A stretch of 10,740 nucleotides of DNA, from positions 1-10,740 of the IMG/VR virus record IMGVR_UViG_2579779116_000010; one strand, written 5' to 3'. The notes beneath the pieces are model-generated. The model saw only the letters and a program-made list of their open reading frames with translations. It was not told the origin of the DNA and did no database searches. Below are positions 1-10,740 of this stretch, piece by piece. Every line of letters starts with the position of its first letter. Within the stretch, counting starts at the first letter, position 1. Origin of the DNA: a virus. Its lineage: Duplodnaviria > Heunggongvirae > Uroviricota > Caudoviricetes. The position numbers and the translations under genes are program-made.

Positions 1-332
1 TCCCCGCCCCATTCGATGGCAGTTCCCAGCTCTGCGGCAGCCTGCTTAAATGCCTGCGCGATTTTCTCGTACAGAGGCCAGTCCCATGACACCTGGCTGC
101 CAACCCAGGCCACAACATCCACCGCATCACCGGTCAGGTGGCGGCTGTTCATGGTCTGGCTCTTGCCTTCTGCAACCAGCTGTTTCTGGCGTTCTTTCGT
201 GCGCAGGCCTTCCGTAATACCGAAATCAACCTCCGTCAGCTCCAGCGCACGGCGAACGACAGCAACCAGCTGTGGTTTAACGCCCTCCAGATTTTTCTCG
301 CTCCGACGACTGAATCTGAATTTACCCGACAT
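1..332 (-). CDS. Endolysin, peptidase M15 family (L-Ala-D-Glu / VanY-type peptidase), 5' part only; continues beyond the window start
   Basis: Minus-strand ORF with ATG at 330-332 and SD GAGGTG about 5 nt upstream, open to the window edge (so absent from the ORF track). Translation MSGKFRFSRRSEKNLEGVKPQLVAVVRRALELTEVDFGITEGLRTKERQKQLVAEGKSQTMNSRHLTGDAVDVVAW... contains the S-x-H-x3-D-x2-D zinc-site signature typical of M15 peptidases. It directly follows two membrane-protein genes. Confidence 0.7.
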   Translation of the reverse strand, partial: MSGKFRFSRRSEKNLEGVKPQLVAVVRRALELTEVDFGITEGLRTKERQKQLVAEGKSQTMNSRHLTGDAVDVVAWVGSQVSWDWPLYEKIAQAFKQAAAELGTAIEWGG

Positions 333-334
333 AT

Positions 335-610
335 TCACCTCAACAATGGAAAGATTTTTGTGACGTTCCCGCGTGCGCGTATCACCAGCACGCAGAACAG
401 CAGATTAAAAAACACTTCCAGCCAGCCCGTTGCTAACGGGCGACCACACAGATAGCTGAGGGGCGCAAAGGCATACAGCAGCATCAGCAGCCAGGCCAGC
501 CATGACATCAGCGGTTTGTGCGTGGCATCTTTTCGGCGATAAAAAAAGAACGTCAGCACGATAACCGTGCATAACGCCACATTCAGCAATCCGGGAAGGT
601 TACTTAACAT
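335..610 (-). CDS. Small membrane protein of the lysis cassette (putative holin or antiholin), 91 aa
   Basis: ORF-track ORF 335..610. ATG at 608-610 preceded by GGAGG about 7 nt upstream. Two to three hydrophobic helices (LPGLLNVALCTVIVLTFFFY, WLAWLLMLLYAFAPLSYL, WLEVFFNLLFCVLVI). Its start overlaps the stop of the upstream membrane-protein gene and its stop lies 2 nt before the endolysin start. Family not recognised. Confidence 0.5.
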   Translation of the reverse strand: MLSNLPGLLNVALCTVIVLTFFFYRRKDATHKPLMSWLAWLLMLLYAFAPLSYLCGRPLATGWLEVFFNLLFCVLVIRARGNVTKIFPLLR

Positions 611-992
611 TGCCGCCTCCTCCGCCCCTCAGGCGGGAGAACAGGCCGGACACCAGTGATGCGATATCCTGCTGGTGGATGAATGACAGAATCTTCACTG
701 ACACCACCGATACCAGCACCGCACACAGCGCATCTGCCGATGTACCGTCATACCCTGTTTTTGATGTAATCCAGGCTGACAGTACACGTGCTCCCAGCAC
801 GCCGACGATAAACGACACCAGAAAATGCGCCGCCACACGCCAGGCGGAAATCTTCTGCGGCACAGTTGCCACAAACAAAGCCCCCGCGAACGCACCAAAC
901 ACAATCCCGAAATCCGTTCCGGTGAACAGCCCGAATACCGTCGCCCCTCCGAGCGCAGCCGCCGTGCCGGAACCGGATAAGGGTTCAGACAT
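600..992 (-). CDS. Gly/Ala-rich multi-helix membrane protein, putative holin, 130 aa
   Basis: Part of ORF-track ORF 600..1064, re-started at the internal ATG 990-992 (MSEPLSGSG...) because it has AGGAG 8 nt upstream and a minus-strand terminator at 1012-1033 lies inside the longer ORF. Gly/Ala-rich transmembrane segments (GGATVFGLFTGTDFGIVFGAFAGALFVA, AHFLVSFIVGVLGARVLSAWI, ALCAVLVSVVSVKILSFI). First gene of the lysis cassette. Confidence 0.5.
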   Translation of the reverse strand: MSEPLSGSGTAAALGGATVFGLFTGTDFGIVFGAFAGALFVATVPQKISAWRVAAHFLVSFIVGVLGARVLSAWITSKTGYDGTSADALCAVLVSVVSVKILSFIHQQDIASLVSGLFSRLRGGGGGNVK

Positions 993-1011
993 ACTTTTTT
1001 CTCCTGTAAAT

Positions 1012-1033
1012 AAAAAAGGGCCACCAGCGGCCC
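1012..1033 (-). terminator. Intrinsic terminator-like hairpin immediately upstream of the holin-like gene
   Basis: Plus strand aaaaaa GGGCC accagc GGCCC (1012-1033). On the minus strand this reads as a 5-bp GC stem followed by T6. Confidence 0.4.
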
Positions 1034-1161
1034 GTAAAAAACACCCCGTCAAAAGCACCGGCATCCGCAGATGCCCTTTGCGTGGCGTTATTTGATGCGC
1101 GCCAGATGTGGCGCAAAGAAATGAAATAAGACTTATCGGAAATTAAGGTTAATTTGAGGAT

Positions 1162-1189
1162 TTGAACCACTTATGAAGCTTAGTAGAAT
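1162..1189 (+). promoter_or_regulatory. Candidate sigma-70 promoter (TTGAAC-N16-TAGAAT) for a plus-strand small transcript
   Basis: TTGAAC at 1162-1167, 16-nt spacer, TAGAAT at 1184-1189. Lies about 120-150 nt upstream of the plus-strand terminator at 1311-1343. No ORF with an RBS follows. Confidence 0.3.
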
Positions 1190-1195
1190 GAACAT

Positions 1196-1343
1196 GTCCC
1201 CGGAAGGGGCCAATACTTATTATTCTTCATGGACTTTGTCCCGCGGTCTTAATCCGACGACCACGCTACTTTTCACCCTCTCGCAAATTGCTATCTAAAG
1301 AACGTTGTCCCACGAGTATTCCTGGATGCTCGTGTCTTTTTTT
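1196..1343 (+). ncRNA. Candidate small RNA (about 150 nt) between promoter-like element and intrinsic terminator
   Basis: Predicted transcript from about 1196 to the terminator at 1311-1343. Has a 5'-proximal GC hairpin (CCCCGGAAGGGG, about 1197-1210). The only internal ORF (34 codons) lacks an SD. Identified from signals only, not homology. Confidence 0.25.
1311..1343 (+). terminator. Intrinsic terminator, plus strand
   Basis: CACGAG (1311-1316), 12-nt loop, CTCGTG (1329-1334), then TCTTTTTTT (1335-1343). Confidence 0.45.
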
Positions 1344-1356
1344 GTCCTGAGAAAGG

Positions 1357-1385
1357 AATAAAAAAAACCGCCAGATATGGCGGTT
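1357..1385 (-). terminator. Strong intrinsic terminator, minus strand
   Basis: Minus strand reads AACCGCCA-tatc-TGGCGGTT followed by a run of about 9 T (plus-strand A-run 1357-1367, stem 1366-1385). Convergent with the plus-strand terminator 12 nt away. Confidence 0.6.
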
Positions 1386-2319
1386 GGTCAATGCAAGGGA
1401 TGAATTTTTTAATTGTTATTAAACCGAGGCGCCGGGTGCCTCCCGAAGTATTCCGTGCTGTATGGATACTGTGGTTTCCCGCTAAACCGACTCTATAAAC
1501 CACCCTCGCGCTGAGGAACGCCCCAATTCATGTTTTTCAACACAGAGAAGCGCATCACTGGTTACTCAACGCTAAATCCGGCTTCCTGTCGTGGGCAATG
1601 CGCCATTTCTGTGTCATAAAAAAATACAGCACTGAATCCGTAACCGATCTCCATTACAGAATGAGGCCCAACAAAGGAATTAACGAGATCTGTTCCTCAC
1701 AAAAAACGCCAGTGCTGTAAAAACTCATCAAAGAACAATGAATGTGCGGAGAACAGGAATCGAACCAGTATCACTAACCTAAAAGGCTGAAGTAATAGCC
1801 ACTGTACGATACCTGTATATAGAGCGGGCCTCCGTAACCACAGTAATGATACTATAACAATATGATTAAACGGATGCCAGCAATGACCCGCGAGGCAGCT
1901 GGTCATGCGCCAGCGAACACAGACTCGCTGCCTTTTGGGTCGGGAGTAATATTACCGATAAATCATATGACATCAAAAAATAATTGGTTTTAAGATTTTA
2001 ATATGTGTATAAATATGTATCAGATAAATACAAATTATTTTATTTCATCCAGAATTCTGATTTTACGCAAGAGATTGCTAAAAAATAACACAAACATGAT
2101 CGGTTTGGGAACAAACCAATTCCGTTGTCGCAATAAATAACAGGAAATACTCCGGGCACAACGGAGCGCAAGAATTACATCAGCAGTGGTTTTTGTAACG
2201 TTTAACGTTAATTGTATCGTTGATAGAAAAGCTTTGACGCAATATAGTGAACTAACAGGGCCTGACGAATAGCCCTATTACGCCGAGCTAATAGCGCTGC
2301 CAGCTAAACTTGCATGGAA

Positions 2320-2396
2320 TGGTCCGCCACCGAGGACTCGAACCTCGCACCATCAACTTAGAAGGTTGATGCTCTATCCCGATGAGCTAGTGGCGG
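2320..2396 (-). tRNA. tRNA-Arg, anticodon UCU (reads AGA), 77 nt with encoded CCA
   Basis: Reverse complement CCGCCAC-TA-GCTC-ATCGGGATA-GAGC-A-TCAAC-CTTCTAA-GTTGA-TGGTG-CGAGG-TTCGAGT-CCTCG-GTGGCGG-A-CCA folds as a cloverleaf: 7-bp acceptor stem, D stem GCTC/GAGC, anticodon loop CU-UCU-AA, T loop TTCGAGT. Resembles E. coli argU and the argN-type tRNA of lambdoid/Stx phages. Confidence 0.85.
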
Positions 2397-2397
2397 T

Positions 2398-2473
2398 TGG
2401 TGGCCCTTGCTGGATTTGAACCAGCGACCTGGCGATTATGAGTCGCTCGCTCTCACCACTGAGCTAAAGGGCC
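2398..2473 (-). tRNA. tRNA-Ile2 (anticodon CAU, lysidine type; formally Met-like), 76 nt with encoded CCA
   Basis: Reverse complement GGCCCTTTAGCTCAGTGGTGAGAGCGAGCGACTCATAATCGCCAGGTCGCTGGTTCAAATCCAGCAAGGGCCACCA. Cloverleaf with anticodon loop CT-CAT-AA. Very close to my recollection of E. coli ileX/ileY; corresponds to ileZ of lambdoid phages. Separated from tRNA-Arg by 1 nt. Confidence 0.85.
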
Positions 2474-2590
2474 GGGCGCAGGATAATAACGTTACAAAAT
2501 CAATGTTGCAAGCATTCAAAAATCACCTGGTTAAAAATCCCCCTTACTTCCTCCACCAGCGCATTCACCATGTCTATCCGAGATAAGTGG

Positions 2591-2630
2591 CACAAAAAAC
2601 CCGCATTTGGGCGGGTTTTGTTTGCTTTTG
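2591..2630. terminator. Bidirectional intrinsic terminator; on the minus strand the tR'-like terminator of the late leader
   Basis: AACCCGC (2598-2604), loop atttgg, GCGGGTT (2611-2617). T-rich tract follows on the plus strand (2618-2630) and an A-run precedes it (2591-2598), which reads as T-run on the minus strand. Confidence 0.6.
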
Positions 2631-2670
2631 CCATCACGTACAAAATCGGCAAAATATCAGATTTGCATGA

Positions 2671-2699
2671 AATATATGCCTTTCAATCTACTTTTGCAA
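2671..2699 (-). promoter_or_regulatory. pR'-like late promoter (TTGCAA-N17-TATATT) overlapping the 3' end of the Q-like gene
   Basis: Minus strand -35 TTGCAA (plus 2694-2699), 17-nt spacer, -10 TATATT (plus 2671-2676). Predicted start near 2664, about 70 nt upstream of the tR'-like terminator. This matches the lambda Q/pR'/tR' arrangement. Confidence 0.45.
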
Positions 2700-3372
2700 C
2701 ACTTTGCTTTGAAAATGCCGCCTTTTGTTTTGAACGCGTTCTCATTACAAACAATAAAGCCCCACTATCCAGTCGGTAAAAAATGTGTTTCATTGCAACC
2801 CAGTGACGAGTAAATGTTTTGGACCAGTTTTTAGTTGTCACTCCCGCCAGTAATGCCAGCTCCTGGTATTCATAACCTTCCCCACCAAAAAGTTCTGCTT
2901 TTACTGCCTGCGCCGCCAGCCAGATTAATTTTTTCAGGCGTTCCTGCGTTTTCCCTGCAATTTTTCTGGTACCGGATTGAGTATTAAATTCATTCCACGC
3001 CCACTGTGTTATCGCGATCTGATATTCCCAACAAATACTCCCGCTGTAACACCACAACAACCAGGCTTTATGATGTTCTTCAAGAGACAGAACAGCCCGC
3101 CGCCACGATGATGTCGAAAACTCAACCGGACTGACCAGAGGAATTGACGTCCCCTTCGCCAGCGATTGTTTCCCCGGGATTGGTGGATTATCCCGCGTAA
3201 TCATTTTTCCGGTCACTTCATCTCGGTACCGGATTTTTTTACGCCTGTAACGCCCTGTATCAAACATGGCATTCTCCTGCCAGGCTTCAAGCTGACCTTT
3301 TGTTGCCCCACTCAAATCAGCGGTGGCGATAATGAGCTGCTCACGCACAAACTGTAAATACTGGTTATTCAT
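2683..3372 (-). CDS. Putative late-gene antiterminator (Q-like), 229 aa
   Basis: ORF-track ORF 2683..3378, trimmed to the ATG at 3370-3372, which overlaps the rusA stop as ATGA. Assigned by position only: directly downstream of rusA and directly upstream of the pR'/tR' module and phage tRNAs. I could not confirm family membership from the sequence. Confidence 0.5.
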   Translation of the reverse strand: MNNQYLQFVREQLIIATADLSGATKGQLEAWQENAMFDTGRYRRKKIRYRDEVTGKMITRDNPPIPGKQSLAKGTSIPLVSPVEFSTSSWRRAVLSLEEHHKAWLLWCYSGSICWEYQIAITQWAWNEFNTQSGTRKIAGKTQERLKKLIWLAAQAVKAELFGGEGYEYQELALLAGVTTKNWSKTFTRHWVAMKHIFYRLDSGALLFVMRTRSKQKAAFSKQSVAKVD

Positions 3373-3734
3373 GCGCACTCCAGTTCTGTGATTTTTATCC
3401 CCAGCCGCCCACCAGGAACGAGCTGACCGCGCACAATATTGATTTCATCAAACTGCTCGTCGTCTATAAGTAGTCCGGCATGCGTCAGCGCATCCAGTGG
3501 TGCCTTCAGGATATTGTCCAGGTCGCGGCGGCGCTTATCCGGTGGCTCCGCAATAATCTTTATCGCCAGCCTTCCGGACAGGTTTAATTTCAACCGCTGC
3601 TGGCGAACAATAAGCGCCACATCACGGCGATAACGCTCACCGGCTTTTGATACAAAATATGTGCTGCCACGACGTCGCCAGTAAGTGTTCACCGTTGGCG
3701 GGTAAGGCAAAACAAATTCTATGCGTTCAGTCAT
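3369..3734 (-). CDS. rusA: Holliday-junction resolvase RusA (crossover junction endodeoxyribonuclease), 121 aa
   Basis: ORF-track ORF 3369..3734. MTERIEFVLPYPPTVNTYWRRRGSTYFVSKAGERYRRDVA...PDKRRRDLDNILKAPLDALTHAGLLIDDEQ...GGRLGIKITE aligns motif by motif with E. coli RusA as I recall it (LPxPPSxNxYY, PDRRRRDLDN, DALT, DD, GGRL, ITE), including the catalytic Asp cluster. Confidence 0.85.
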   Translation of the reverse strand: MTERIEFVLPYPPTVNTYWRRRGSTYFVSKAGERYRRDVALIVRQQRLKLNLSGRLAIKIIAEPPDKRRRDLDNILKAPLDALTHAGLLIDDEQFDEINIVRGQLVPGGRLGIKITELECA

Positions 3735-4793
3735 TCATGCTTTCCACTTCAGGACACCCGAATTTCTCGCGTGCATTAAAAAACGAATCAGCAACAACAG
3801 CTGGCTGCCGTGTTTTTCTTCAAAATCTTTTACCCCGGCGTGCAGTTCGTTATGACATTTACGGCACAGCGGAATAACAAACAAATCATCAGCCTTTGTT
3901 CCCATCCCTCCCAGTCCATGACCAATGATGTGATGCGGATCATCTGCCTGATTACCGCACGTCATGCATTTCTGCGTTTTTACCCAGCGCGTGTATACAG
4001 GCATCTCTTCCCGTTGTGGTTTCTGGCGCTGGAGATACTGAGTCGGTGACTCCGGATCAACAGCAATGCTGACCACCGTCTTTTCCTGTGGCGGGTTCTG
4101 TTGCTGGTGGGCGTGAGGCAGCGGCGCAAGATTTTTTGTGCGCTGTTTCAGTATGCTGGTGGCGGTCTGCTCTCCCGGTACGATGTCGCTTTCACGGTAC
4201 ATTGAGCGGATTTTTTCCGCACGCAACCCCAGCGAACGACGTAATACCACTTCCGGTAGCGCGTCCGCCACCTGATTGCGGACCGCCCACCAGGATAATT
4301 CAGCCAGAGATAATTCACGCTCCTGCGTACCGCTTATTGCGTGACCGATGACGTCAATCATCCATGCTGACAGGTTTTGATGAGCAAGTTGCTCGAGTGA
4401 TTCGGATGTCTGGTCACGCAGCTGGTTGTCGCAGTGCCAGCACAACACCATTGCGCCGGTACCATAACGGTGAATAACGGTTTCGCTGTGATGATAATCG
4501 CCGTGTGGCCACTGGCAGGATTTAACATGACGCAGGAGCCAGTCAGACAGTGCACCAGCGCCGCCGGCAGCACGAATCACCCGCTCATCGCTGAAAAATG
4601 GCAGCAGAGATTTGTCTTCTGCCAGCGGCTGGCGAACGGCAGGAACGACCCCGGACGGCAGACCGCGCATGCTTTTTGGCTCCGGTTCAACCAGCACTCT
4701 GCCGTTATGGAATACCTGCATGGATTCACGACCTGGCTTAAGGACCACCAGCCCGAGTTCCGGTACCGGAACAGGTCGAAGTAATACGCGCAC
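3735..4793 (-). CDS. ydfU: DUF968-type protein with C-terminal HNH-like zinc-finger motif (YdfU-like), 352 aa, GTG start
   Basis: ORF-track ORF 3735..4793. GTG start with GGAG 5 nt upstream. C-terminus CMTCGNQADDPHHIIGHGLGG...IPLCRKCHNELH has a CxxC...HH...CxxCH pattern. The size and its position between a small ORF and the nin/Q region match my recollection of Qin ydfU; the gene symbol is by synteny only. Confidence 0.6.
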   Translation of the reverse strand: MRVLLRPVPVPELGLVVLKPGRESMQVFHNGRVLVEPEPKSMRGLPSGVVPAVRQPLAEDKSLLPFFSDERVIRAAGGAGALSDWLLRHVKSCQWPHGDYHHSETVIHRYGTGAMVLCWHCDNQLRDQTSESLEQLAHQNLSAWMIDVIGHAISGTQERELSLAELSWWAVRNQVADALPEVVLRRSLGLRAEKIRSMYRESDIVPGEQTATSILKQRTKNLAPLPHAHQQQNPPQEKTVVSIAVDPESPTQYLQRQKPQREEMPVYTRWVKTQKCMTCGNQADDPHHIIGHGLGGMGTKADDLFVIPLCRKCHNELHAGVKDFEEKHGSQLLLLIRFLMHARNSGVLKWKA

Positions 4794-4794
4794 G

Positions 4795-5067
4795 TTATCT
4801 CCAGATTCGTTGCTGGAATGTGCGGGACGGGCGTGGTGGGCGTTCGGAATAAGGGAGCCTGACGTAGATTATCCAGTGACGATAATCGAGGCTGAGAGCT
4901 TTCCTAAACTCATACCCACGTCTGCGGTAGTTATGAATCAGCCATTCGGCCTGTTCTTCAGTGCAGGGGTCATGCTGGTACCAGTCACATTTGAATGTGT
5001 GAGGGCGCCGCCCGTGCCCGCTGGCAAGGTCGGTATCAGAATTGTGATGTTTGGTATTGTGCGCCAT
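4795..5067 (-). CDS. Hypothetical protein, about 90 aa, in the position that rem occupies in Qin
   Basis: ORF-track ORF 4795..5148 uses a TTG start that lies inside the terminator at 5138-5165, so I shortened it to the first ATG (5065-5067, MAHNTKHH...). SD is weak (AGAGA). The stop abuts the GTG start of the DUF968 gene. No recognisable motif. Confidence 0.35.
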   Translation of the reverse strand: MAHNTKHHNSDTDLASGHGRRPHTFKCDWYQHDPCTEEQAEWLIHNYRRRGYEFRKALSLDYRHWIIYVRLPYSERPPRPSRTFQQRIWR

Positions 5068-5137
5068 CGGTTGTCTCTGCTGGCGCAGCAGGTGCCAGTT
5101 GTTCAGGCTGGCATGCGTATTGTAAACCAGAATGCCA

Positions 5138-5165
5138 GAAAAAAACAAAACCCGCCGAAGCGGGT
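5138..5165 (-). terminator. Intrinsic terminator downstream of the lipoprotein gene
   Basis: Minus strand reads ACCCGC-TTCG-GCGGG-TTTTGTTTTTTT (plus 5139-5165): 5-bp GC stem, UUCG tetraloop, T-rich tail. Confidence 0.6.
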
Positions 5166-5294
5166 ATGCTAAAACAAACTGAAGGTAATATGCCGGACTT
5201 GTAAAGGAACGATAGAATAATTATCGGATTAAATCCTGACTCAATCCATAGGGTTTACAGCGTTTTCACTAATAATTTACCGTCCCGCTATACA

Positions 5295-5687
5295 TTACTG
5301 CCCTGTTTTAACGAAGTTTTTAAAGGAAACAACTGCCTGATAGGGGTTTGGTTGACAGCCAAACATATTGTCGCAAAAAGGCTTGATGAAAATTCTTGAG
5401 GATCCATCTTCATTTGGCATTTTACTCACTTGATAAGCGAGGAATGGACTATTTGGAGAGGGATTATAAGTGGAAATTAGCGTGTCTGTCGCCGTTTGAA
5501 TTTTCCATGAGGAATTATTAGCCAACCAGAATTGCGCTCGTTTCCAATAAAAGTCACATTGCTTTTCATCATTACATGTTAGTGGCTTCATTGCTTCTGC
5601 TTTCAACGCTGGATCGACCTTTGCTGCACACCCTCCCAACATTACTGTTGCAATCATTACACCTGCGACTAAAACAAGTTTCTTCAT
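5295..5687 (-). CDS. Lipoprotein, 130 aa (signal peptide with lipobox LGG-C, mature part with four further Cys); moron-like
   Basis: ORF-track ORF 5295..5687. MKKLVLVAGVMIATVMLGGC... is a classic type II signal peptide with lipobox. Visibly more AT-rich than the flanking genes. Bracketed by terminator-like hairpins at 5745-5765 and 5138-5165. No family recognised. Confidence 0.7.
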   Translation of the reverse strand: MKKLVLVAGVMIATVMLGGCAAKVDPALKAEAMKPLTCNDEKQCDFYWKRAQFWLANNSSWKIQTATDTLISTYNPSPNSPFLAYQVSKMPNEDGSSRIFIKPFCDNMFGCQPNPYQAVVSFKNFVKTGQ

Positions 5688-5744
5688 CTCCCTGCCCCAT
5701 CAATAAAAGTTCGGTTCTCTAATAACTAGAGTTAATCAACGGAA

Positions 5745-5765
5745 AAAACGCCGAAGCGGGTTAAG
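5745..5765 (-). terminator. Weak intrinsic terminator-like element downstream of hokD
   Basis: Minus strand CCCGC-TTCG-GCG-TTTTTT (plus 5743-5761): short 3-bp stem with UUCG loop and T6. Shares the exact 13-mer CGCCGAAGCGGGT with the terminator at 5153-5165. Confidence 0.3.
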
Positions 5766-5830
5766 TGCGGGTGCGTTGAGGATGCCTGACACATCAGAGG
5801 TGGCGAGGGATTTCTCCCCCGCCAGGTCTC

Positions 5831-5986
5831 TTACTCCTCAGGTTCGTAAGCTGTGAAGACAGCGACCTCCGTCTGGCCGGTTCGGATTCGTACCTCGCAG
5901 AGGTCTTTCCTCGTTACCAGTGCCGTCACTATGACGGTTAAACAGATGACGATCAGGGCGATTAACATCGCCTTTTGCTGCTTCAT
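5831..5986 (-). CDS. hokD: Hok-family type I toxin HokD (RelF), 51 aa
   Basis: Not in the ORF track (under 60 aa). Reverse complement of 5831-5986 translates to MKQQKAMLIALIVICLTVIVTALVTRKDLCEVRIRTGQTEVAVFTAYEPEE, which matches my recollection of K-12 HokD. It lies directly downstream of relE, as in the relBEF operon. Confidence 0.85.
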   Translation of the reverse strand: MKQQKAMLIALIVICLTVIVTALVTRKDLCEVRIRTGQTEVAVFTAYEPEE

Positions 5987-6057
5987 AGCCTGCTTCTCCT
6001 GTCAACGCAAAGCAGAAGTGTCACCTTCGGTGCGAAACAGAGATGTCATGCTTTGGT

Positions 6058-6345
6058 TCAGAGAATGCGTTTGACCGCCTCGCTATATACTTCCGAGCGT
6101 TCTCTTTTCCCAACAGAAATCACGAAAACGACAACTTTCTCGTCTATAACCTGGTATACAAGGCGATAGCCTGAAGACCGGAGCTTAATCTTGTAACAAT
6201 CAGGCATACCACGGAGCTTGTTTGCTTCAATCCGGGGTGACTCAAGTACTTCAACCAGCTTCTTTTTCAACTGTTCACGTACCGTCGAGCCCAGCTTTCG
6301 CCATTCCTTTAGTGCCCGCTCGTCAAAATCCAGAAAATACGCCAT
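6058..6345 (-). CDS. relE: RelE mRNA-interferase toxin, 95 aa
   Basis: ORF-track ORF 6058..6345. MAYFLDFDERALKEWRKLGSTVREQLKKKLVEVLESPRIEANKLRGMPDCYKIKLRSSGYRLVYQVIDEKVVVFVISVGKRERSEVYSEAVKRIL is essentially the K-12 RelE sequence as I recall it. Its start overlaps the relB stop (TGATG). Confidence 0.92.
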   Translation of the reverse strand: MAYFLDFDERALKEWRKLGSTVREQLKKKLVEVLESPRIEANKLRGMPDCYKIKLRSSGYRLVYQVIDEKVVVFVISVGKRERSEVYSEAVKRIL

Positions 6346-6584
6346 CAGAGTTCATCCAGCGTCACACGTACTGGCTTAGGATTACGAAGCCGTTCTTTCA
6401 CTATCTCCACAAGTTCAGCATCTTCATCACTCAGGAGTGTCTGTTTGAACGGCAAGCGTTCATTGTCAGCGATATACTCGAGCATGAGACGAAGCGCTTC
6501 AGAAGGAGTTACACCCATTTTTTCAAGCGCGGCGTAAGAACGCGCTTTAAGTTCATCGTCAATACGCAGGTTAATGCTACCCAT
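6345..6584 (-). CDS. relB: RelB antitoxin, 79 aa
   Basis: ORF-track ORF 6345..6584. MGSINLRIDDELKARSYAALEKMGVTPSEALRLMLEYIADNERLPFKQTLLSDEDAELVEIVKERLRNPKPVRVTLDEL matches my recollection of K-12 RelB, with a ribbon-helix-helix N-terminus. Confidence 0.92.
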   Translation of the reverse strand: MGSINLRIDDELKARSYAALEKMGVTPSEALRLMLEYIADNERLPFKQTLLSDEDAELVEIVKERLRNPKPVRVTLDEL

Positions 6585-6596
6585 GTCTTACACCTC

Positions 6597-6648
6597 TTGT
6601 AATTACAAATGTCATTACAAGTATCGCACTACAACATGCTTAGGGCAA
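6597..6648 (-). promoter_or_regulatory. relBE promoter with relO operator (hexad repeats)
   Basis: Minus strand -35 TTGCCC (plus 6643-6648), 17-nt spacer, -10 GATACT (plus 6620-6625). Downstream lies TTGTAATGACATTTGTAATTACAAG (plus 6597-6621), containing TTGTAA/TTACAA-type hexads as described for the RelB operator. Confidence 0.7.
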
Positions 6649-6914
6649 GTCACGAAGGAAGTCAGAAAGTAGTCGTAAGAACGGTGATCACTGTCCGCTT
6701 TGTGCCAGGAGCAGCCATTGCTAAGTCCATCCTGTATTGTGCAGGTCAGCTCGTTTTTAAAGAGTCCGGCCATCATCTTACTGGTACAGACACCATATAC
6801 TTTGTGACGGTCAGGCTACATATGCACAACTCAACTTATTCATCTATTTTTTGCTTTAGCATGTCAGTGTTGCTTTCTCGTCGGCGGGTGAGCGGTGACC
6901 TGACCTGTCGATAA
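6609..6914 (+). CDS. ydfV: Doubtful ORF, 101 aa, in the position and size of K-12 ydfV
   Basis: ORF-track ORF 6609..6914. Same length as I recall for YdfV, between relB and flxA. It starts inside the relBE promoter/operator, has no convincing SD, and its composition is not protein-like (MSLQVSHYNMLRASHEGSQ...). Listed for completeness. Confidence 0.2.
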   Translation: MSLQVSHYNMLRASHEGSQKVVVRTVITVRFVPGAAIAKSILYCAGQLVFKESGHHLTGTDTIYFVTVRLHMHNSTYSSIFCFSMSVLLSRRRVSGDLTCR

Positions 6915-7066
6915 AGGAACGTAACACGTTTTATGCAACACCCGCATGCGGCAGAAAATTATTGCCGAACGTTTACCCCTGTCAACAAGCTTTACTTTCT
7001 GAGGCGCGCCAGCCCGCGAGGAAAACAATCTGAACATCAAACAATTAATGACACAAGAAATACGAT

Positions 7067-7093
7067 TAAAGATTTTTTTGTGCATGCCGATAG
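7067..7093 (+). promoter_or_regulatory. Sigma-28 (FliA) class 3 promoter of flxA
   Basis: TAAAGATT (7067-7074), 11-nt spacer, GCCGATAG (7086-7093), versus the consensus TAAAGTTT-N11-GCCGATAA. SD AAGGAG at 7105-7110, ATG at 7117. Confidence 0.75.
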
Positions 7094-7116
7094 TGCTTTT
7101 TTAAAAGGAGAAATCT

Positions 7117-7449
7117 ATGTCTGTCACAATTCAGGGAAATACCTCAACCGTTATTTCAAACAACTCCGCCCCGGAAGGAACATCAGAAATAGCCAAAATC
7201 ACAAGACAAATTCAGGTGCTGACTGAAAAGCTTGGGAAAATCTCATCGGAAGAGGGGATGACGACACAGCAGAAAAAAGAAATGGCTGCATTGGTACAGA
7301 AGCAAATTGAAAGCCTCTGGGCTCAACTGGAGCAGTTGTTAAGGCAGCAGGCAGAGAAAAAGAATGAAGACGCGACAGTTCAGCCTGATAAAAAAGAAGA
7401 GAAAAAAGACGATACAAATACCGCTGGCACCATTGATATTTACGTCTAA
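7117..7449 (+). CDS. flxA: FlxA, FliA-regulated protein of unknown function, 110 aa
   Basis: ORF-track ORF 7117..7449. Strong SD. Coiled-coil-like, Lys/Glu/Gln-rich sequence (MSVTIQGNTSTVISNNSAPEGTSEIAKITRQIQVLTEKLGK...). Position next to relB and the sigma-28 promoter match K-12 flxA as I recall it. Confidence 0.85.
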   Translation: MSVTIQGNTSTVISNNSAPEGTSEIAKITRQIQVLTEKLGKISSEEGMTTQQKKEMAALVQKQIESLWAQLEQLLRQQAEKKNEDATVQPDKKEEKKDDTNTAGTIDIYV

Positions 7450-7463
7450 GTGACAGCCGTATT

Positions 7464-7490
7464 GTGGCCCTCATCGGGCCACTTTTCGCC
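7464..7490 (+). terminator. Intrinsic terminator of flxA
   Basis: GTGGCCC (7464-7470), loop tcatc, GGGCCAC (7476-7482), then TTTT. Starts 15 nt after the flxA stop. Confidence 0.6.
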
Positions 7491-7759
7491 ATCAGCCTTT
7501 TCTTTAAAGACATATTATCTTTGTATCATTTCTGATAGTTAACATTACAAGATATAAGTAATGGACGCACTCCCAATTAGTCTATTTAAATCGCCACGAG
7601 TTTAACTGACAACCCATGATCAATTATGAATTGCAACTATTTCTGTAGTCACTTTTGTGGGGACAGTCCACAAAACTGCCAACTTCCGCTTCTTGCTCTT
7701 AGCGGACATTAGCATAGGCTATTTACCATAACGCCTCATTACGCGCACCGCCCAGACTG

Positions 7760-9270
7760 ACTCAGCGCGTTTCTGGCATATCCCCGGTAAAACAAGTAAC
7801 AAACCACCCGAAAATGAACACCAGAAACGCGACTTAAGAATCTACCCTATGAATGGATATGCACTCAACCGAATCGATCTTGGTTTCAATCTTTTTTATC
7901 GGGATCAGGCTTCTTTTTAGGTAACTTCGGGGGCTTAACTTGCTGATGACTTTGCGTTCGGCGCGTAAGCCAGGGATGGTCAGCTTTAGGTTTAACATAG
8001 TATTTTGAGCGTAAATCAATACGGGCATTATCCACTCGTTCATGGACACTCTTTTCATCATCCGGTGGTATAGGCTCCGGGCCATCAACATACTTTTCCC
8101 AGCCCAGCGCTTTCCCGTCATACAGAACGTTAATTTCACCGTCAAAGTTCTCGCATACAGTAACAACCGAATGCCTAAGTCGATATCCCCGGCCCTCACT
8201 GCGTACCTGAAACGCACTGCTTTTGTACTGGAAAGTGAGATTTTTAGACAGAACGCGCTTCGCCTGTAGGCTGAAGATATAACCCAGTTCCTCTTCAGAA
8301 TGGTGCACATCAAGATGAGCATTATCAGTAGTACGAGGCGACGTAGCGAACCGGTTGTTATAGGCTTCAATAAAGGTCGGCAACCATGCATTTGCTGTTT
8401 CAATATCACTGATATTCTGAAGCCGCATTTCTTTGACCAGCCTGTCCTGTAGTGTCTGATTGGCGCGCTCTACCCGCCCTTTTGCCTGCGGGCTGTTGGC
8501 ATGGATTGGCTCGATGCCCAGTGTCTTTATCGCACGAGTGAACTGGGTCAGCTCACCTTCCCGCTCTGGGTTATTTACCCTGAATATACTGTGTCTATCA
8601 GAGTAGAGAGCGAGCGGTACGCCATGATCATTAAGGTAACCCCGGAGGGTTTCCATGTAAGCCCGGGTTGTTTCAGCAGGCACAAAACGCAACGCCATCA
8701 ACGCACTGGTGGCATCATCAATGAAAACGATCAGTGTACATCTGGGGCCTCGATTTTCAAACCAGTCATGAGGTGAGCCATCAATCTGGATCAGTTCACC
8801 GTAAGATGGTCGTCGCATGCGGCGTTGATATATACGGGCAATTTTACGACGGCGTTCACGCCATAACCCCTCTTCTATCATCCACTTTCTGAGAGTTTCA
8901 ACGGATAAAGATAAACCGTGTATCTCGCGCAATTTTTCGCACGCAAACGTAGGTCCAAAATCAGCGTAACGGCCTTTGAGGAGTGAAATTACTGTTGCTC
9001 TGAATTCAGTAGAAAAGGAATTATTAGGACGCTTTCCACGTCGGTGGGAAACCAGACCAGAAGGCCCTTCATTTCTATACCGTTGCACCAGACGTTTAAC
9101 CTGCCGAATAGAAATGCCAATGCGTGCCGCAGCTTGTTCCTGAATAATCTGAAGTCGGTGGAGTTCCTTATGACTCATCGTAACAGTCTCTTTGATCATG
9201 AAAAATCCCCCAGAGAATTGTCTGGGGACATTTTAGAATGGTTCAAAGGGGACATTACAGCTTGGTGTTA
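7760..9270 (-). mobile_element. Insertion sequence carrying the DDE transposase; boundaries approximate
   Basis: Transposase gene plus flanking repeat-rich DNA: an 11-bp perfect inverted repeat CGCGTTTCTGG / CCAGAAACGCG at 7766-7776 and 7821-7831, and two GGGGACATT direct repeats at 9224-9232 and 9249-9257. I could not identify matching terminal inverted repeats or a target-site duplication. Confidence 0.3.
7886..9199 (-). CDS. DDE transposase (rve / integrase-core type, N-terminal HTH), 437 aa; IS481- or ISNCY-like, family not resolved
   Basis: ORF-track ORF 7886..9199. N-terminal HTH-like region (SHKELHRLQIIQEQAAARIGISIRQVKRLVQRY). Catalytic triad candidates are D in LIQIDGSPHDW, D in ALYSDRHSIF and E in GRVERANQTLQDR with basic residues after the E. 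Single long ORF with SD GGGGGA. Confidence 0.8.
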   Translation of the reverse strand: MIKETVTMSHKELHRLQIIQEQAAARIGISIRQVKRLVQRYRNEGPSGLVSHRRGKRPNNSFSTEFRATVISLLKGRYADFGPTFACEKLREIHGLSLSVETLRKWMIEEGLWRERRRKIARIYQRRMRRPSYGELIQIDGSPHDWFENRGPRCTLIVFIDDATSALMALRFVPAETTRAYMETLRGYLNDHGVPLALYSDRHSIFRVNNPEREGELTQFTRAIKTLGIEPIHANSPQAKGRVERANQTLQDRLVKEMRLQNISDIETANAWLPTFIEAYNNRFATSPRTTDNAHLDVHHSEEELGYIFSLQAKRVLSKNLTFQYKSSAFQVRSEGRGYRLRHSVVTVCENFDGEINVLYDGKALGWEKYVDGPEPIPPDDEKSVHERVDNARIDLRSKYYVKPKADHPWLTRRTQSHQQVKPPKLPKKKPDPDKKD

Positions 9271-9533
9271 ACAATAGCCTGCTTCTCCGTGCCTTTCGGC
9301 ACGTAAGAGGCTAACCTACATGTGTCTAGCATGAAATTGGCCTCAGATTAATGTTAAGCGTCTTGCAGGACGCGTAATGTTAACTGGGGCTTTTCTCTAT
9401 CTGCCGTTGGTGTCCATGCCCGAGGCAGATAGCCTCAAGCACCCGCAGTCATTCTACTTAACTAAGATTTCCCCGCAAACCGTTTTTGTCCAGCACAGTA
9501 AATATCCAACTAAACCAATGGAGTTCGCTGTAT

Positions 9534-9713
9534 TTACCGCCAGTATTCAATGCACATGACCGCCATGAACACCCCTAAAAAAAGGGCATTTATATATCCA
9601 AATATTAATATCAAAACATCAACTTTTTCCATATACCTTGCTGTGAAGATGATGGGCATACATGATGCGAACAACCAGAACGCAACAAACAAAAACTGCA
9701 ATGCGTTTTTCAT
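9534..9713 (-). CDS. Small two-helix membrane protein, 59 aa
   Basis: Part of ORF-track ORF 9534..9752, re-started at the internal ATG 9711-9713 because AGGAGG lies 4 nt upstream (GTAGGAGGAATA-ATG). MKNALQFLFVAFWLFASCMPIIFTARYMEKVDVLILIFGYINALFLGVFMAVMCIEYWR has two hydrophobic helices. Embedded in an AT-rich island. No family recognised. Confidence 0.45.
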   Translation of the reverse strand: MKNALQFLFVAFWLFASCMPIIFTARYMEKVDVLILIFGYINALFLGVFMAVMCIEYWR

Positions 9714-9967
9714 TATTCCTCCTACAATCAATGTGCAATTACATTTAAACACACCTCAATTTGGCCGGACATATAAATATCTAAACCAGAAAAAATCACT
9801 TACATAGCGTTACAAACTCTTTAGTCTAAAGGTTCATCGTAAAACATTCCCCATACTTATCAGTCCGTTCCGCGCCAGGTAGCTCATTGCCTTATCTGGC
9901 AACCTGTAATCAGGTTTCCGCTTTTTCAGTTGGCTGGTCGTTTAACCGACATAGTTAATCCATTAAT

Positions 9968-10255
9968 CTAGTTGCCGGATGTTGGTGGATTTTCGCGTTT
10001 TAGTTGTTCATAAAAGTGCACAGCTTTAACCAGTTCTTCTGATGTAACTGGGACTGGTGAGGCAGTGAATAAGGCCTGAATTTGATAGTTCGGCCTGTCG
10101 TTACAATCCTCTTTTTTCGGTACATATTTCCAGTCACCAGACCACTACTTCCCCTGAAAGTCCGTAACGCCTTTTTTCACGTAGCGATATCGCCATGCCA
10201 CTGGTTTTGCTTGCCCCGCCGTTTCATGCCCTTCCTGATAATTAATCTCGCTCAT
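9968..10255 (-). pseudogene. 95-codon gene interrupted by an in-frame TAG at codon 37 (36-aa ORF, then a 58-codon open continuation)
   Basis: ATG at 10253-10255 overlaps the upstream stop as ATGA. MSEINYQEGHETAGQAKPVAWRYRYVKKGVTDFQGK-TAG-WSGDWKYVPKKEDCNDRPNYQIQALFTASPVPVTSEELVKAVHFYEQLKRENPPTSGN-TAG. The TAG is at plus 10145-10147. Confidence 0.35.
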
Positions 10256-10443
10256 TCATCGCCCCACTCATCACAATATGCTTCGACCGGAGTTTTTCCC
10301 GCTTCATAGTCATCACGCTAGGATTCGACATCAGCAGCACTTCCACCGCGTAACTCACCATAGTCCATTAATAGTTCATCCCGCTCTTCAAAACTGATGT
10401 TATATTTAGCTGAACAAAAATCAGCCACTTTGTTCTTCCTCAT
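10252..10443 (-). pseudogene. 63-codon acidic gene interrupted by an in-frame TAG at codon 42; its final stop overlaps the start of the next gene
   Basis: ATG at 10441-10443. MRKNKVADFCSAKYNISFEERDELLMDYGELRGGSAADVES-TAG-RDDYEAGKTPVEAYCDEWGDE-TGA. The TAG is at plus 10318-10320. The terminal TGA (10252-10254) overlaps the downstream ATG as ATGA. Confidence 0.3.
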
Positions 10444-10492
10444 CGTCTTTTATTTCGTGGTATGAGTAATTGCAGTAGTTAAAGAAAATTTC

Positions 10493-10603
10493 TTATGCTC
10501 CGTCATGAATTTCCTCAGGTGTTGCGTCATCGTCCACTTCGAATACATCCTCAAAATCTCCACCAGCTATTCCCGTTTCAATAATAATTTTGAACTTTCG
10601 CAT
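10493..10603 (-). CDS. Short acidic ORF, 36 aa
   Basis: ATG at 10601-10603. MRKFKIIIETGIAGGDFEDVFEVDDDATPEEIHDGA. An AGGAGG lies 24 nt upstream, with a 6-bp GC hairpin (CCGCCC-gaaa-GGGCGG, plus 10611-10626) in between. Coding status uncertain. Confidence 0.2.
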   Translation of the reverse strand: MRKFKIIIETGIAGGDFEDVFEVDDDATPEEIHDGA

Positions 10604-10740
10604 TTCACTACCGCCCTTTCGGGCGGCCTCCTGATGTTCTGAGGGTGCAGAAATCCATCCGGTTAAGGATTAAATTTTATTTACAGAACTGAATTTAACT
10701 ATTCAGATATACGTATCTGTGATCTTACCCAGCAATAGTG

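Follow-up and report, generated by a model that had tools for sequence, protein, structure and literature searches.

Why do consecutive small phage genes carry stop codons inside frames that stay open beyond them? The stretch of DNA analysed here, which we call the window, comprises 10,740 nucleotides of the IMG/VR virus record IMGVR_UViG_2579779116_000010 (positions 1 to 10,740) and raises this question near its end. On its minus strand, an ATG at 10443-10441 opens a frame of 41 sense codons that meets a TAG at 10320-10318 and runs on through 21 further open codons to a TGA at 10254-10252, which overlaps the next ATG, at 10255-10253, as ATGA; from that second ATG, 36 sense codons lead to a TAG at 10147-10145 and 58 open codons to another TAG at 9970-9968. 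A sequence-only reading of this stretch took the two frames for once-intact, coupled genes of 63 and 95 codons, and offered decay by nonsense mutation, an amber suppressor in the source strain, or sequencing error as explanations. Re-reading the sequence, we find both in-frame TAGs, the frames, the open codons and the ATGA overlap exactly as that reading described them. Open-frame length by itself is suggestive of former genes, since local base composition alone would leave 21 codons open with P ~0.24 and 58 codons with P ~0.02; homology decides the matter. Intact homologues of full length run through both TAGs in codon-for-codon alignment, and the alignment that the earlier reading had proposed returns sense codons at both sites in intact relatives (TGG at the first; CAG, CCG, ATG or CTG at the second). 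That both genes were once intact therefore stands, as the homologues are open across both TAGs; the sizes do not, the true lengths being 58 and 171 codons. The damage is also wider than had been thought, extending over three interrupted genes, which we call A, B and C, on the minus strand at 9834-10603.

The middle gene shows how the earlier model went astray. Gene B (10252-10428, minus strand; phrog_519), as delimited by alignment with intact homologues, is a pseudogene of 58 codons. Every intact homologue starts with an ATG at the equivalent of window position 10428, overlapping the stop of gene A (ATGGCTGA); the window has GTG there, at 10428-10426. The ATG at 10441-10443 on the minus strand, from which the sequence-only reading began its first gene, occurs in none of the homologues and is owed to a T that replaced A at 10442, a change private to the window lineage (GAA→GAT in the frame of gene A). 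Because the homologues start at 10428 and the ATG at 10443 is lineage-private, gene B has 58 codons and its amber TAG at 10320-10318 is codon 37, which is TGG (Trp37) in intact homologues; its TGA at 10254-10252 overlaps the start of gene C. Besides the nonsense change, gene B carries nine private amino acid changes in a protein that is otherwise almost invariant. Nine of the ten private coding changes in this gene lie upstream of the TAG and one, synonymous, lies downstream, a distribution built on small numbers.

Upstream of gene B, and outside the coordinates that the earlier reading had covered, lies gene A (10421-10603, minus strand), a 60-codon pseudogene of the DUF7167 family according to its translation, its homologues, Pfam and PGAP. 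Its frame is interrupted by an ochre TAA at 10495-10493, at codon 37, where intact homologues have AAA (Lys37), and is then open to a TGA at 10423-10421. Intact homologues of 60 amino acids are represented by WP_001224662 and WP_001224672. An intact homologue, scored in place of the window copy, matches Pfam DUF7167 (PF23768) with 55.1 bits against a cutoff of 24.4, over model positions 1-60, and the intact homologues also match phrog_1997. Set against these families, intact gene A proteins fit the full-length model and the window copy is a remnant: relative to its closest intact relative it differs by four residues plus the stop, all of them private. In the PGAP annotation, a copy identical to it appears as 'DUF7167 family protein; internal stop'. 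Between a GGAGG motif and the ATG of gene A we note a hairpin, GCCGCCC-GAAA-GGGCGGT (10601-10631, minus strand), which is present in all aligned homologues; in one of them (L004) a C→T change keeps the pair as G·U. This hairpin may draw the Shine-Dalgarno sequence nearer to the ATG; termination or RNA processing is another possible role.

Gene C (9834-10255, minus strand; phrog_660) is damaged well beyond what the sequence-only reading could show, as alignment with the 171-aa proteins WP_001289995 and WP_021526748 and with other alleles brings out. Intact gene C proteins range from 104 to 171 aa by allele, and it is with the longest, 171-aa form that the window remnants align, up to its stop, giving an ancestral length of 171 codons. 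The first amber TAG, at 10147-10145, is codon 37, which is CAG, CCG, ATG or CTG in intact copies. The second, at 9970-9968, which had been taken for the natural end of the gene, is a further amber mutation where intact copies read CAG. In addition, 90 nt have been deleted in frame, with the junction in the sole remaining copy, at 9991-9981, of a direct repeat (AATCCRCCAG; 9981-9991, minus strand) that formerly flanked the deleted segment; intact copies (L003, L009 and L015) read AATCCGCCAG, ~80 nt, and then AATCCACCAG. A 4-nt frameshift deletion follows between 9937 and 9936, there are other small indels, and recognisable remnants end at the ancestral stop, a TGA at 9836-9834. PGAP labels the gene 'hypothetical protein; frameshifted; internal stop'. 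Another widespread allele of gene C (L002 6035-6458, L013 551-867, L019 2610-2867) has two additional nucleotides in an A-run 20 nt upstream of the shared TAG, which is thereby out of frame, and opens an 85-codon Arg/Lys-rich alternative frame that is given as a protein in one phage record and as frameshifted by PGAP; this allele is probably another pseudogene form.

What kind of element harbours these genes? The window is an E. coli prophage, lambdoid and of the Qin type, with genes for a Q-type antiterminator, RusA, DUF968/YdfU, rem, hokD, relBE, ydfV, flxA and an ISNCY (ISEsa1-like) transposase, followed by A, B and C; in near-identical genomes, the sequence beyond A/B/C encodes a methyltransferase, a DUF977 protein, an O-like replication gene, ydaT and dicC/dicA. 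In intact relatives the A/B/C region is flanked by the replication genes on one side and by the hok / DUF968 / RusA / Q module on the other, and one locus (L027) has the complete arrangement A(60)-B(58)-C(171)-hok-DUF968-RusA-Q. Gene order and overlaps are conserved in the intact homologues found elsewhere in lambdoid prophages, some deposited phage genomes carry intact A and B, and Stx2a-converting phages also match the region. A, B and C are small accessory genes of the early-right, nin-like region, consecutive and translationally coupled. As to what they do, Pfam, PHROGs and NCBIfam offer only DUF7167 and PHROG families without known function. In K-12 MG1655, a deletion from the equivalent of window position 8070 to ydfX/dicC has removed the A/B/C segment, and because of this deletion the pseudogenes are absent from the K-12 reference and its literature. 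We found nothing specific in the literature on Qin pseudogenes or on the prophage record PhiR42_1, described below.

By comparison with locus L002, a 3.3-kb insertion (6000-9274) carrying relBE, ydfV, flxA and the ISNCY transposase gene lies ~400 bp downstream of gene C. This relB-relE-ydfV-flxA-ISNCY insertion sits inside the ancestral hok/sok locus and cuts hok off from sok and from the regulatory part upstream: the hokD coding sequence lies at 5831-5986 and the sok antitoxin, a full-length match to Rfam RF01794 with 104 bits, at 9273-9444, ~3.3 kb away, both on the minus strand. In K-12 MG1655 the sok side has gone through the ydfW-ydfX deletion. The transposase ORF (7886-9199, minus strand; 437 aa; NF033594, 456 bits) is uninterrupted, and PGAP labels the identical ORF in near-identical genomes 'incomplete'. 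YdfW (49 aa, in L001 and K-12) ends on the stop codon of this ORF and so represents its C-terminal end; the K-12 deletion endpoint, at the equivalent of window position 8070, falls within the same ORF. Farther along, downstream of the Q antiterminator gene, the minus strand encodes a tRNA-Arg(tct) and a CAT-anticodon tRNA (Met or Ile2-like) at 2320-2396 and 2398-2473; tRNAs after Q are usual in lambdoid late regions. Where it can be aligned, the first part of the window (1-5742) is ~85% identical to Qin of K-12 and to L001, the last 20 bases (10721-10740) differ from all close relatives, and among 5426 complete E. coli genomes there is not one that carries at least 80% of the window at one place. 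A search with the RusA protein of the window led only to other mosaic prophages. From the ~85% identity of the left half, the diverging end and the lack of any genome with at least 80% of the window, we take the source to be a mosaic, as yet unsampled, of modules from Qin-type and other lambdoid prophages.

The damaged alleles themselves are common. A search of 5426 complete E. coli genomes with the A+B allele returned 480 records at >=99% identity, from humans, pigs, chickens, cattle, food and wastewater, with ATCC 8739 one of the carrier strains; the gene C region returned 511 records at >=99% and a further 698 at 95-99%. When the two stops in the A+B query were repaired, nothing matched at 100% or 99.7% among the 5426 genomes, and the best match, at 99.4%, had exactly two mismatches; in these complete genomes the window-type A+B allele never occurs intact or with just one of the stops. 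Gene C has a broader history. Five of its alleles read from outside the window clade (L002, L012, L013, L014 and L019) all have the 90-nt deletion together with intact A and B, and four of the five, all except L014, have the TAG at codon 37. PGAP places pseudogene flags on the identical sequence in strain WP7-S17-ESBL-04, with the same labels in the other carrier genomes examined; standard annotation already treats these genes as pseudogenes. Two records in this collection deserve comment. PV340562.1 (L016), deposited as 'Escherichia phage PhiR42_1, complete genome' (48.7 kb; host ECOR13), is a Qin-type prophage whose A-C segment is identical to that of the window. The 4.83-Mb 'DH5alpha' record NZ_CP026085.1 contains the window-type allele, and since K-12 MG1655 is without the segment, its 'DH5alpha' label looks doubtful.

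Have the interrupted genes evolved under constraint? We polarised the substitutions private to the window lineage in A and B with eight intact alleles as outgroups, and obtained 19, comprising 12 nonsynonymous, two nonsense and five synonymous changes. Random mutation of the reconstructed ancestor at the observed transition/transversion ratio, which we used as the neutral expectation, yields 72% nonsynonymous, 4.5% nonsense and 23% synonymous changes. The share of nonsynonymous changes is no different from this expectation (binomial p=0.79), and two or more nonsense changes among 19 would arise under neutrality with P=0.21. By contrast, the intact alleles L003 and L004, whose silent sites have diverged to the same degree, are separated by three nonsynonymous and 16 synonymous changes (Fisher p=8e-4 against the window lineage); purifying selection on intact copies of A and B is strong. 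Pairwise dN/dS is 0.13-0.14 between the window and intact alleles, compared with 0.03-0.05 between L004 and L002, L003 or L005, which are deeply diverged and intact. Decay is, moreover, continuing within the window-type clade: the variants sampled inside it comprise six nonsynonymous and four synonymous changes, in one member (L029, NZ_AP045777.1) codon 6 of gene B has newly changed, TCA→TAA (at the equivalent of window 10412), and three others (L007, L008 and L030) have lost one nucleotide of gene C (at the equivalent of window 10170). From the dN/dS values of 0.13-0.14 against 0.03-0.05, we conclude that a long constrained history was followed by a recent neutral phase, and that most of the divergence predates the loss of constraint; the counts behind the neutral phase are small (19 + 10 substitutions).

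Could the stops be harmless to expression, or not be real at all? An amber suppressor tRNA of the supE or supF type in the source strain, which would keep B and C expressed, draws on the fact that amber accounts for three of the four internal stops and that supE-type alleles exist among sequenced E. coli. Such a tRNA cannot correct the ochre TAA of gene A, nor the 4-nt frameshift and the indels of gene C, and a tRNA scan of the window finds only the Arg(tct) and CAT-anticodon (Met/Ile) tRNAs and no CUA anticodon. We searched the genomes with 49-nt probes centred on the anticodon change of supE (glnV CUA) and supF (tyrT CUA), with which wild-type genes cannot seed a megablast match. The supE-type allele is present in 158 of 5426 genomes, all 60 among the records listed being K-12 laboratory strains, and the supF-type allele in one of 5426, again a K-12 laboratory strain; K-12 MG1655 is without the A/B/C segment, and the ~480 carriers of the allele are isolates from pigs, chickens, humans and wastewater. 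Add to this a substitution pattern that is neutral, which argues against expression maintained by suppression, and we regard the suppressor explanation as extremely improbable. The predominance of amber is the expected outcome of CAG→TAG and TGG→TAG transitions: TAG should make up 30-37% of one-step nonsense routes, and at least three ambers among four stops would arise with P ~0.1-0.15. We also considered an alternative code with TAG reassigned, as in recoded phages or with pyrrolysine, and rejected it on account of the missing tRNA(CUA) in the window, the sense codons in close homologues and the ordinary E. coli host. Faulty sequencing or assembly of the source record, the last of the explanations offered by the sequence-only reading, would also account for isolated in-frame stops, and single-base errors do occur in assemblies, with nothing here that points to them specifically. 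Against error stand the 480 (A+B) and 511 (gene C) records at >=99% identity, those of A+B coming from many laboratories and platforms and representing ~480 independent complete genomes. Nine A+B copies at >=99% identity, read base by base, have both stops in nine of nine cases; L001 and L016 are identical to the window across the whole 770-nt A-C span; and in the carrier assemblies examined PGAP flags these very lesions. We give error practically no credence.

More subtle are the possibilities that the stops are real and still matter to the host. Readthrough or tolerance has been proposed for many bacterial in-frame stops, and conserved ones with low dN/dS exist (Belinky et al. 2021, PMC7918605); here, low-level readthrough or functional 36-residue N-terminal peptides might keep some activity. 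The spread of the stop-bearing allele would suit this, as would the occurrence of the gene C TAG-37 allele in several prophage backgrounds, one of them a deposited phage genome, the intact overlapping start and stop signals, and the fact that PGAP in some genomes calls the 36-aa fragment of gene A a protein (WP_001224658). In the scheme of Belinky et al. (PMC7918605), purifying selection counts as kept where dN/dS stays well under 1 once the stop has arisen; the private changes here stand at 14 nonsynonymous or nonsense to five synonymous, a neutral-like ratio without that signature, in a sample small enough to leave room for weak constraint. The six to four ratio among clade variants, with a new nonsense and a new frameshift mutation, the lost ATG start of gene B and the multiple frame-destroying lesions of gene C likewise speak against tolerated or regulatory stops, which we hold to be highly improbable. 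Positive selection for the knock-outs is the converse idea: if A, B and C were harmful when expressed from a defective prophage, nonsense alleles could have swept in the course of prophage domestication. That all three adjacent genes are damaged, that no complete genome has an intact or single-stop version of the diverged allele, and that the prophage still has relBE, hokD and the dicA/dicC region, which are other modules active in the host, would fit such sweeps. The nonsense count is, however, what neutrality predicts (2/19, P=0.21), so that selected loss is not needed, and intact A and B in well over a thousand E. coli genomes argue against strong toxicity; we consider selected knock-outs very unlikely. 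That the stop-bearing alleles are in one way or another not inert, with loss selected in domestication or with 36-residue peptides or readthrough products still active in the host, is very unlikely as well. If true, it would help to explain how the gene C TAG-37 allele came to be spread over several prophage backgrounds and well over a thousand genomes.

Weighing this evidence, we think it very likely that A, B and C are ordinary pseudogenes decaying neutrally in a defective Qin-type prophage. Decay by nonsense mutation, one of the explanations in the sequence-only reading, is borne out by the sense codons in homologues, by the neutral private substitutions and by the PGAP internal-stop pseudogene flags on identical copies. 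Under neutral decay, the window lineage would have lost its need for the three genes, presumably through the prophage having become defective, of which the 3.3-kb relBE-ydfV-flxA-ISNCY insertion may be one sign. Gene A has suffered AAA→TAA, gene B a change of its start from ATG to GTG and TGG→TAG, and gene C two CAG→TAG changes and the 4-nt deletion that shifts its frame; the 90-nt segment of gene C would have been lost by slippage or illegitimate recombination between the 10-bp direct repeats. The ATGA and (A/G)TGGCTGA (GTGGCTGA) overlaps would be relics of the ancestral coupled operon, still present because there has been too little time to erase them. We infer that the full-length A, B and C proteins are not made.

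The value of this result lies mainly in annotation hygiene. In-frame stops in coupled genes, two at first sight and really four, are explained by neutral decay alone, and neither a suppressor tRNA nor recoding nor a sequencing fault is needed to account for them. The analysis also yields corrected gene models of 60, 58 and 171 codons, together with the true start of gene B, and provides a compact, clean case in which the order and tempo of gene decay in a prophage can be followed. The decay pattern could, in addition, serve as a marker of a Qin-type lineage found in ~9% of complete E. coli genomes.

How does this locus compare with known systems? Classical amber mutants grown in supE or supF laboratory hosts, for example those of lambda, likewise have TAG codons in lambdoid genes that arose from CAG or TGG by transitions; the window alleles differ in being natural and widespread, in being accompanied by an ochre stop and frameshifts, and in showing no selection on the sequence past the stops. 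The in-frame stops described by Belinky et al. 2021 (PMC7918605) are similar in lying within alignable genes of many genomes, and differ in that the window has no signature of purifying selection after the stop. The closest likeness is to the pseudogenes of E. coli prophages of the Qin, Rac and DLP12 type, with which the window shares its Qin context, the combination of nonsense mutations, small deletions and an IS insertion, the neutral pattern of substitution and the RefSeq pseudogene flags, and from which it departs in no essential respect. From the Qin prophage of K-12 MG1655 itself, which is without the A/B/C segment, the Qin variant in the window differs in that it retains this segment.
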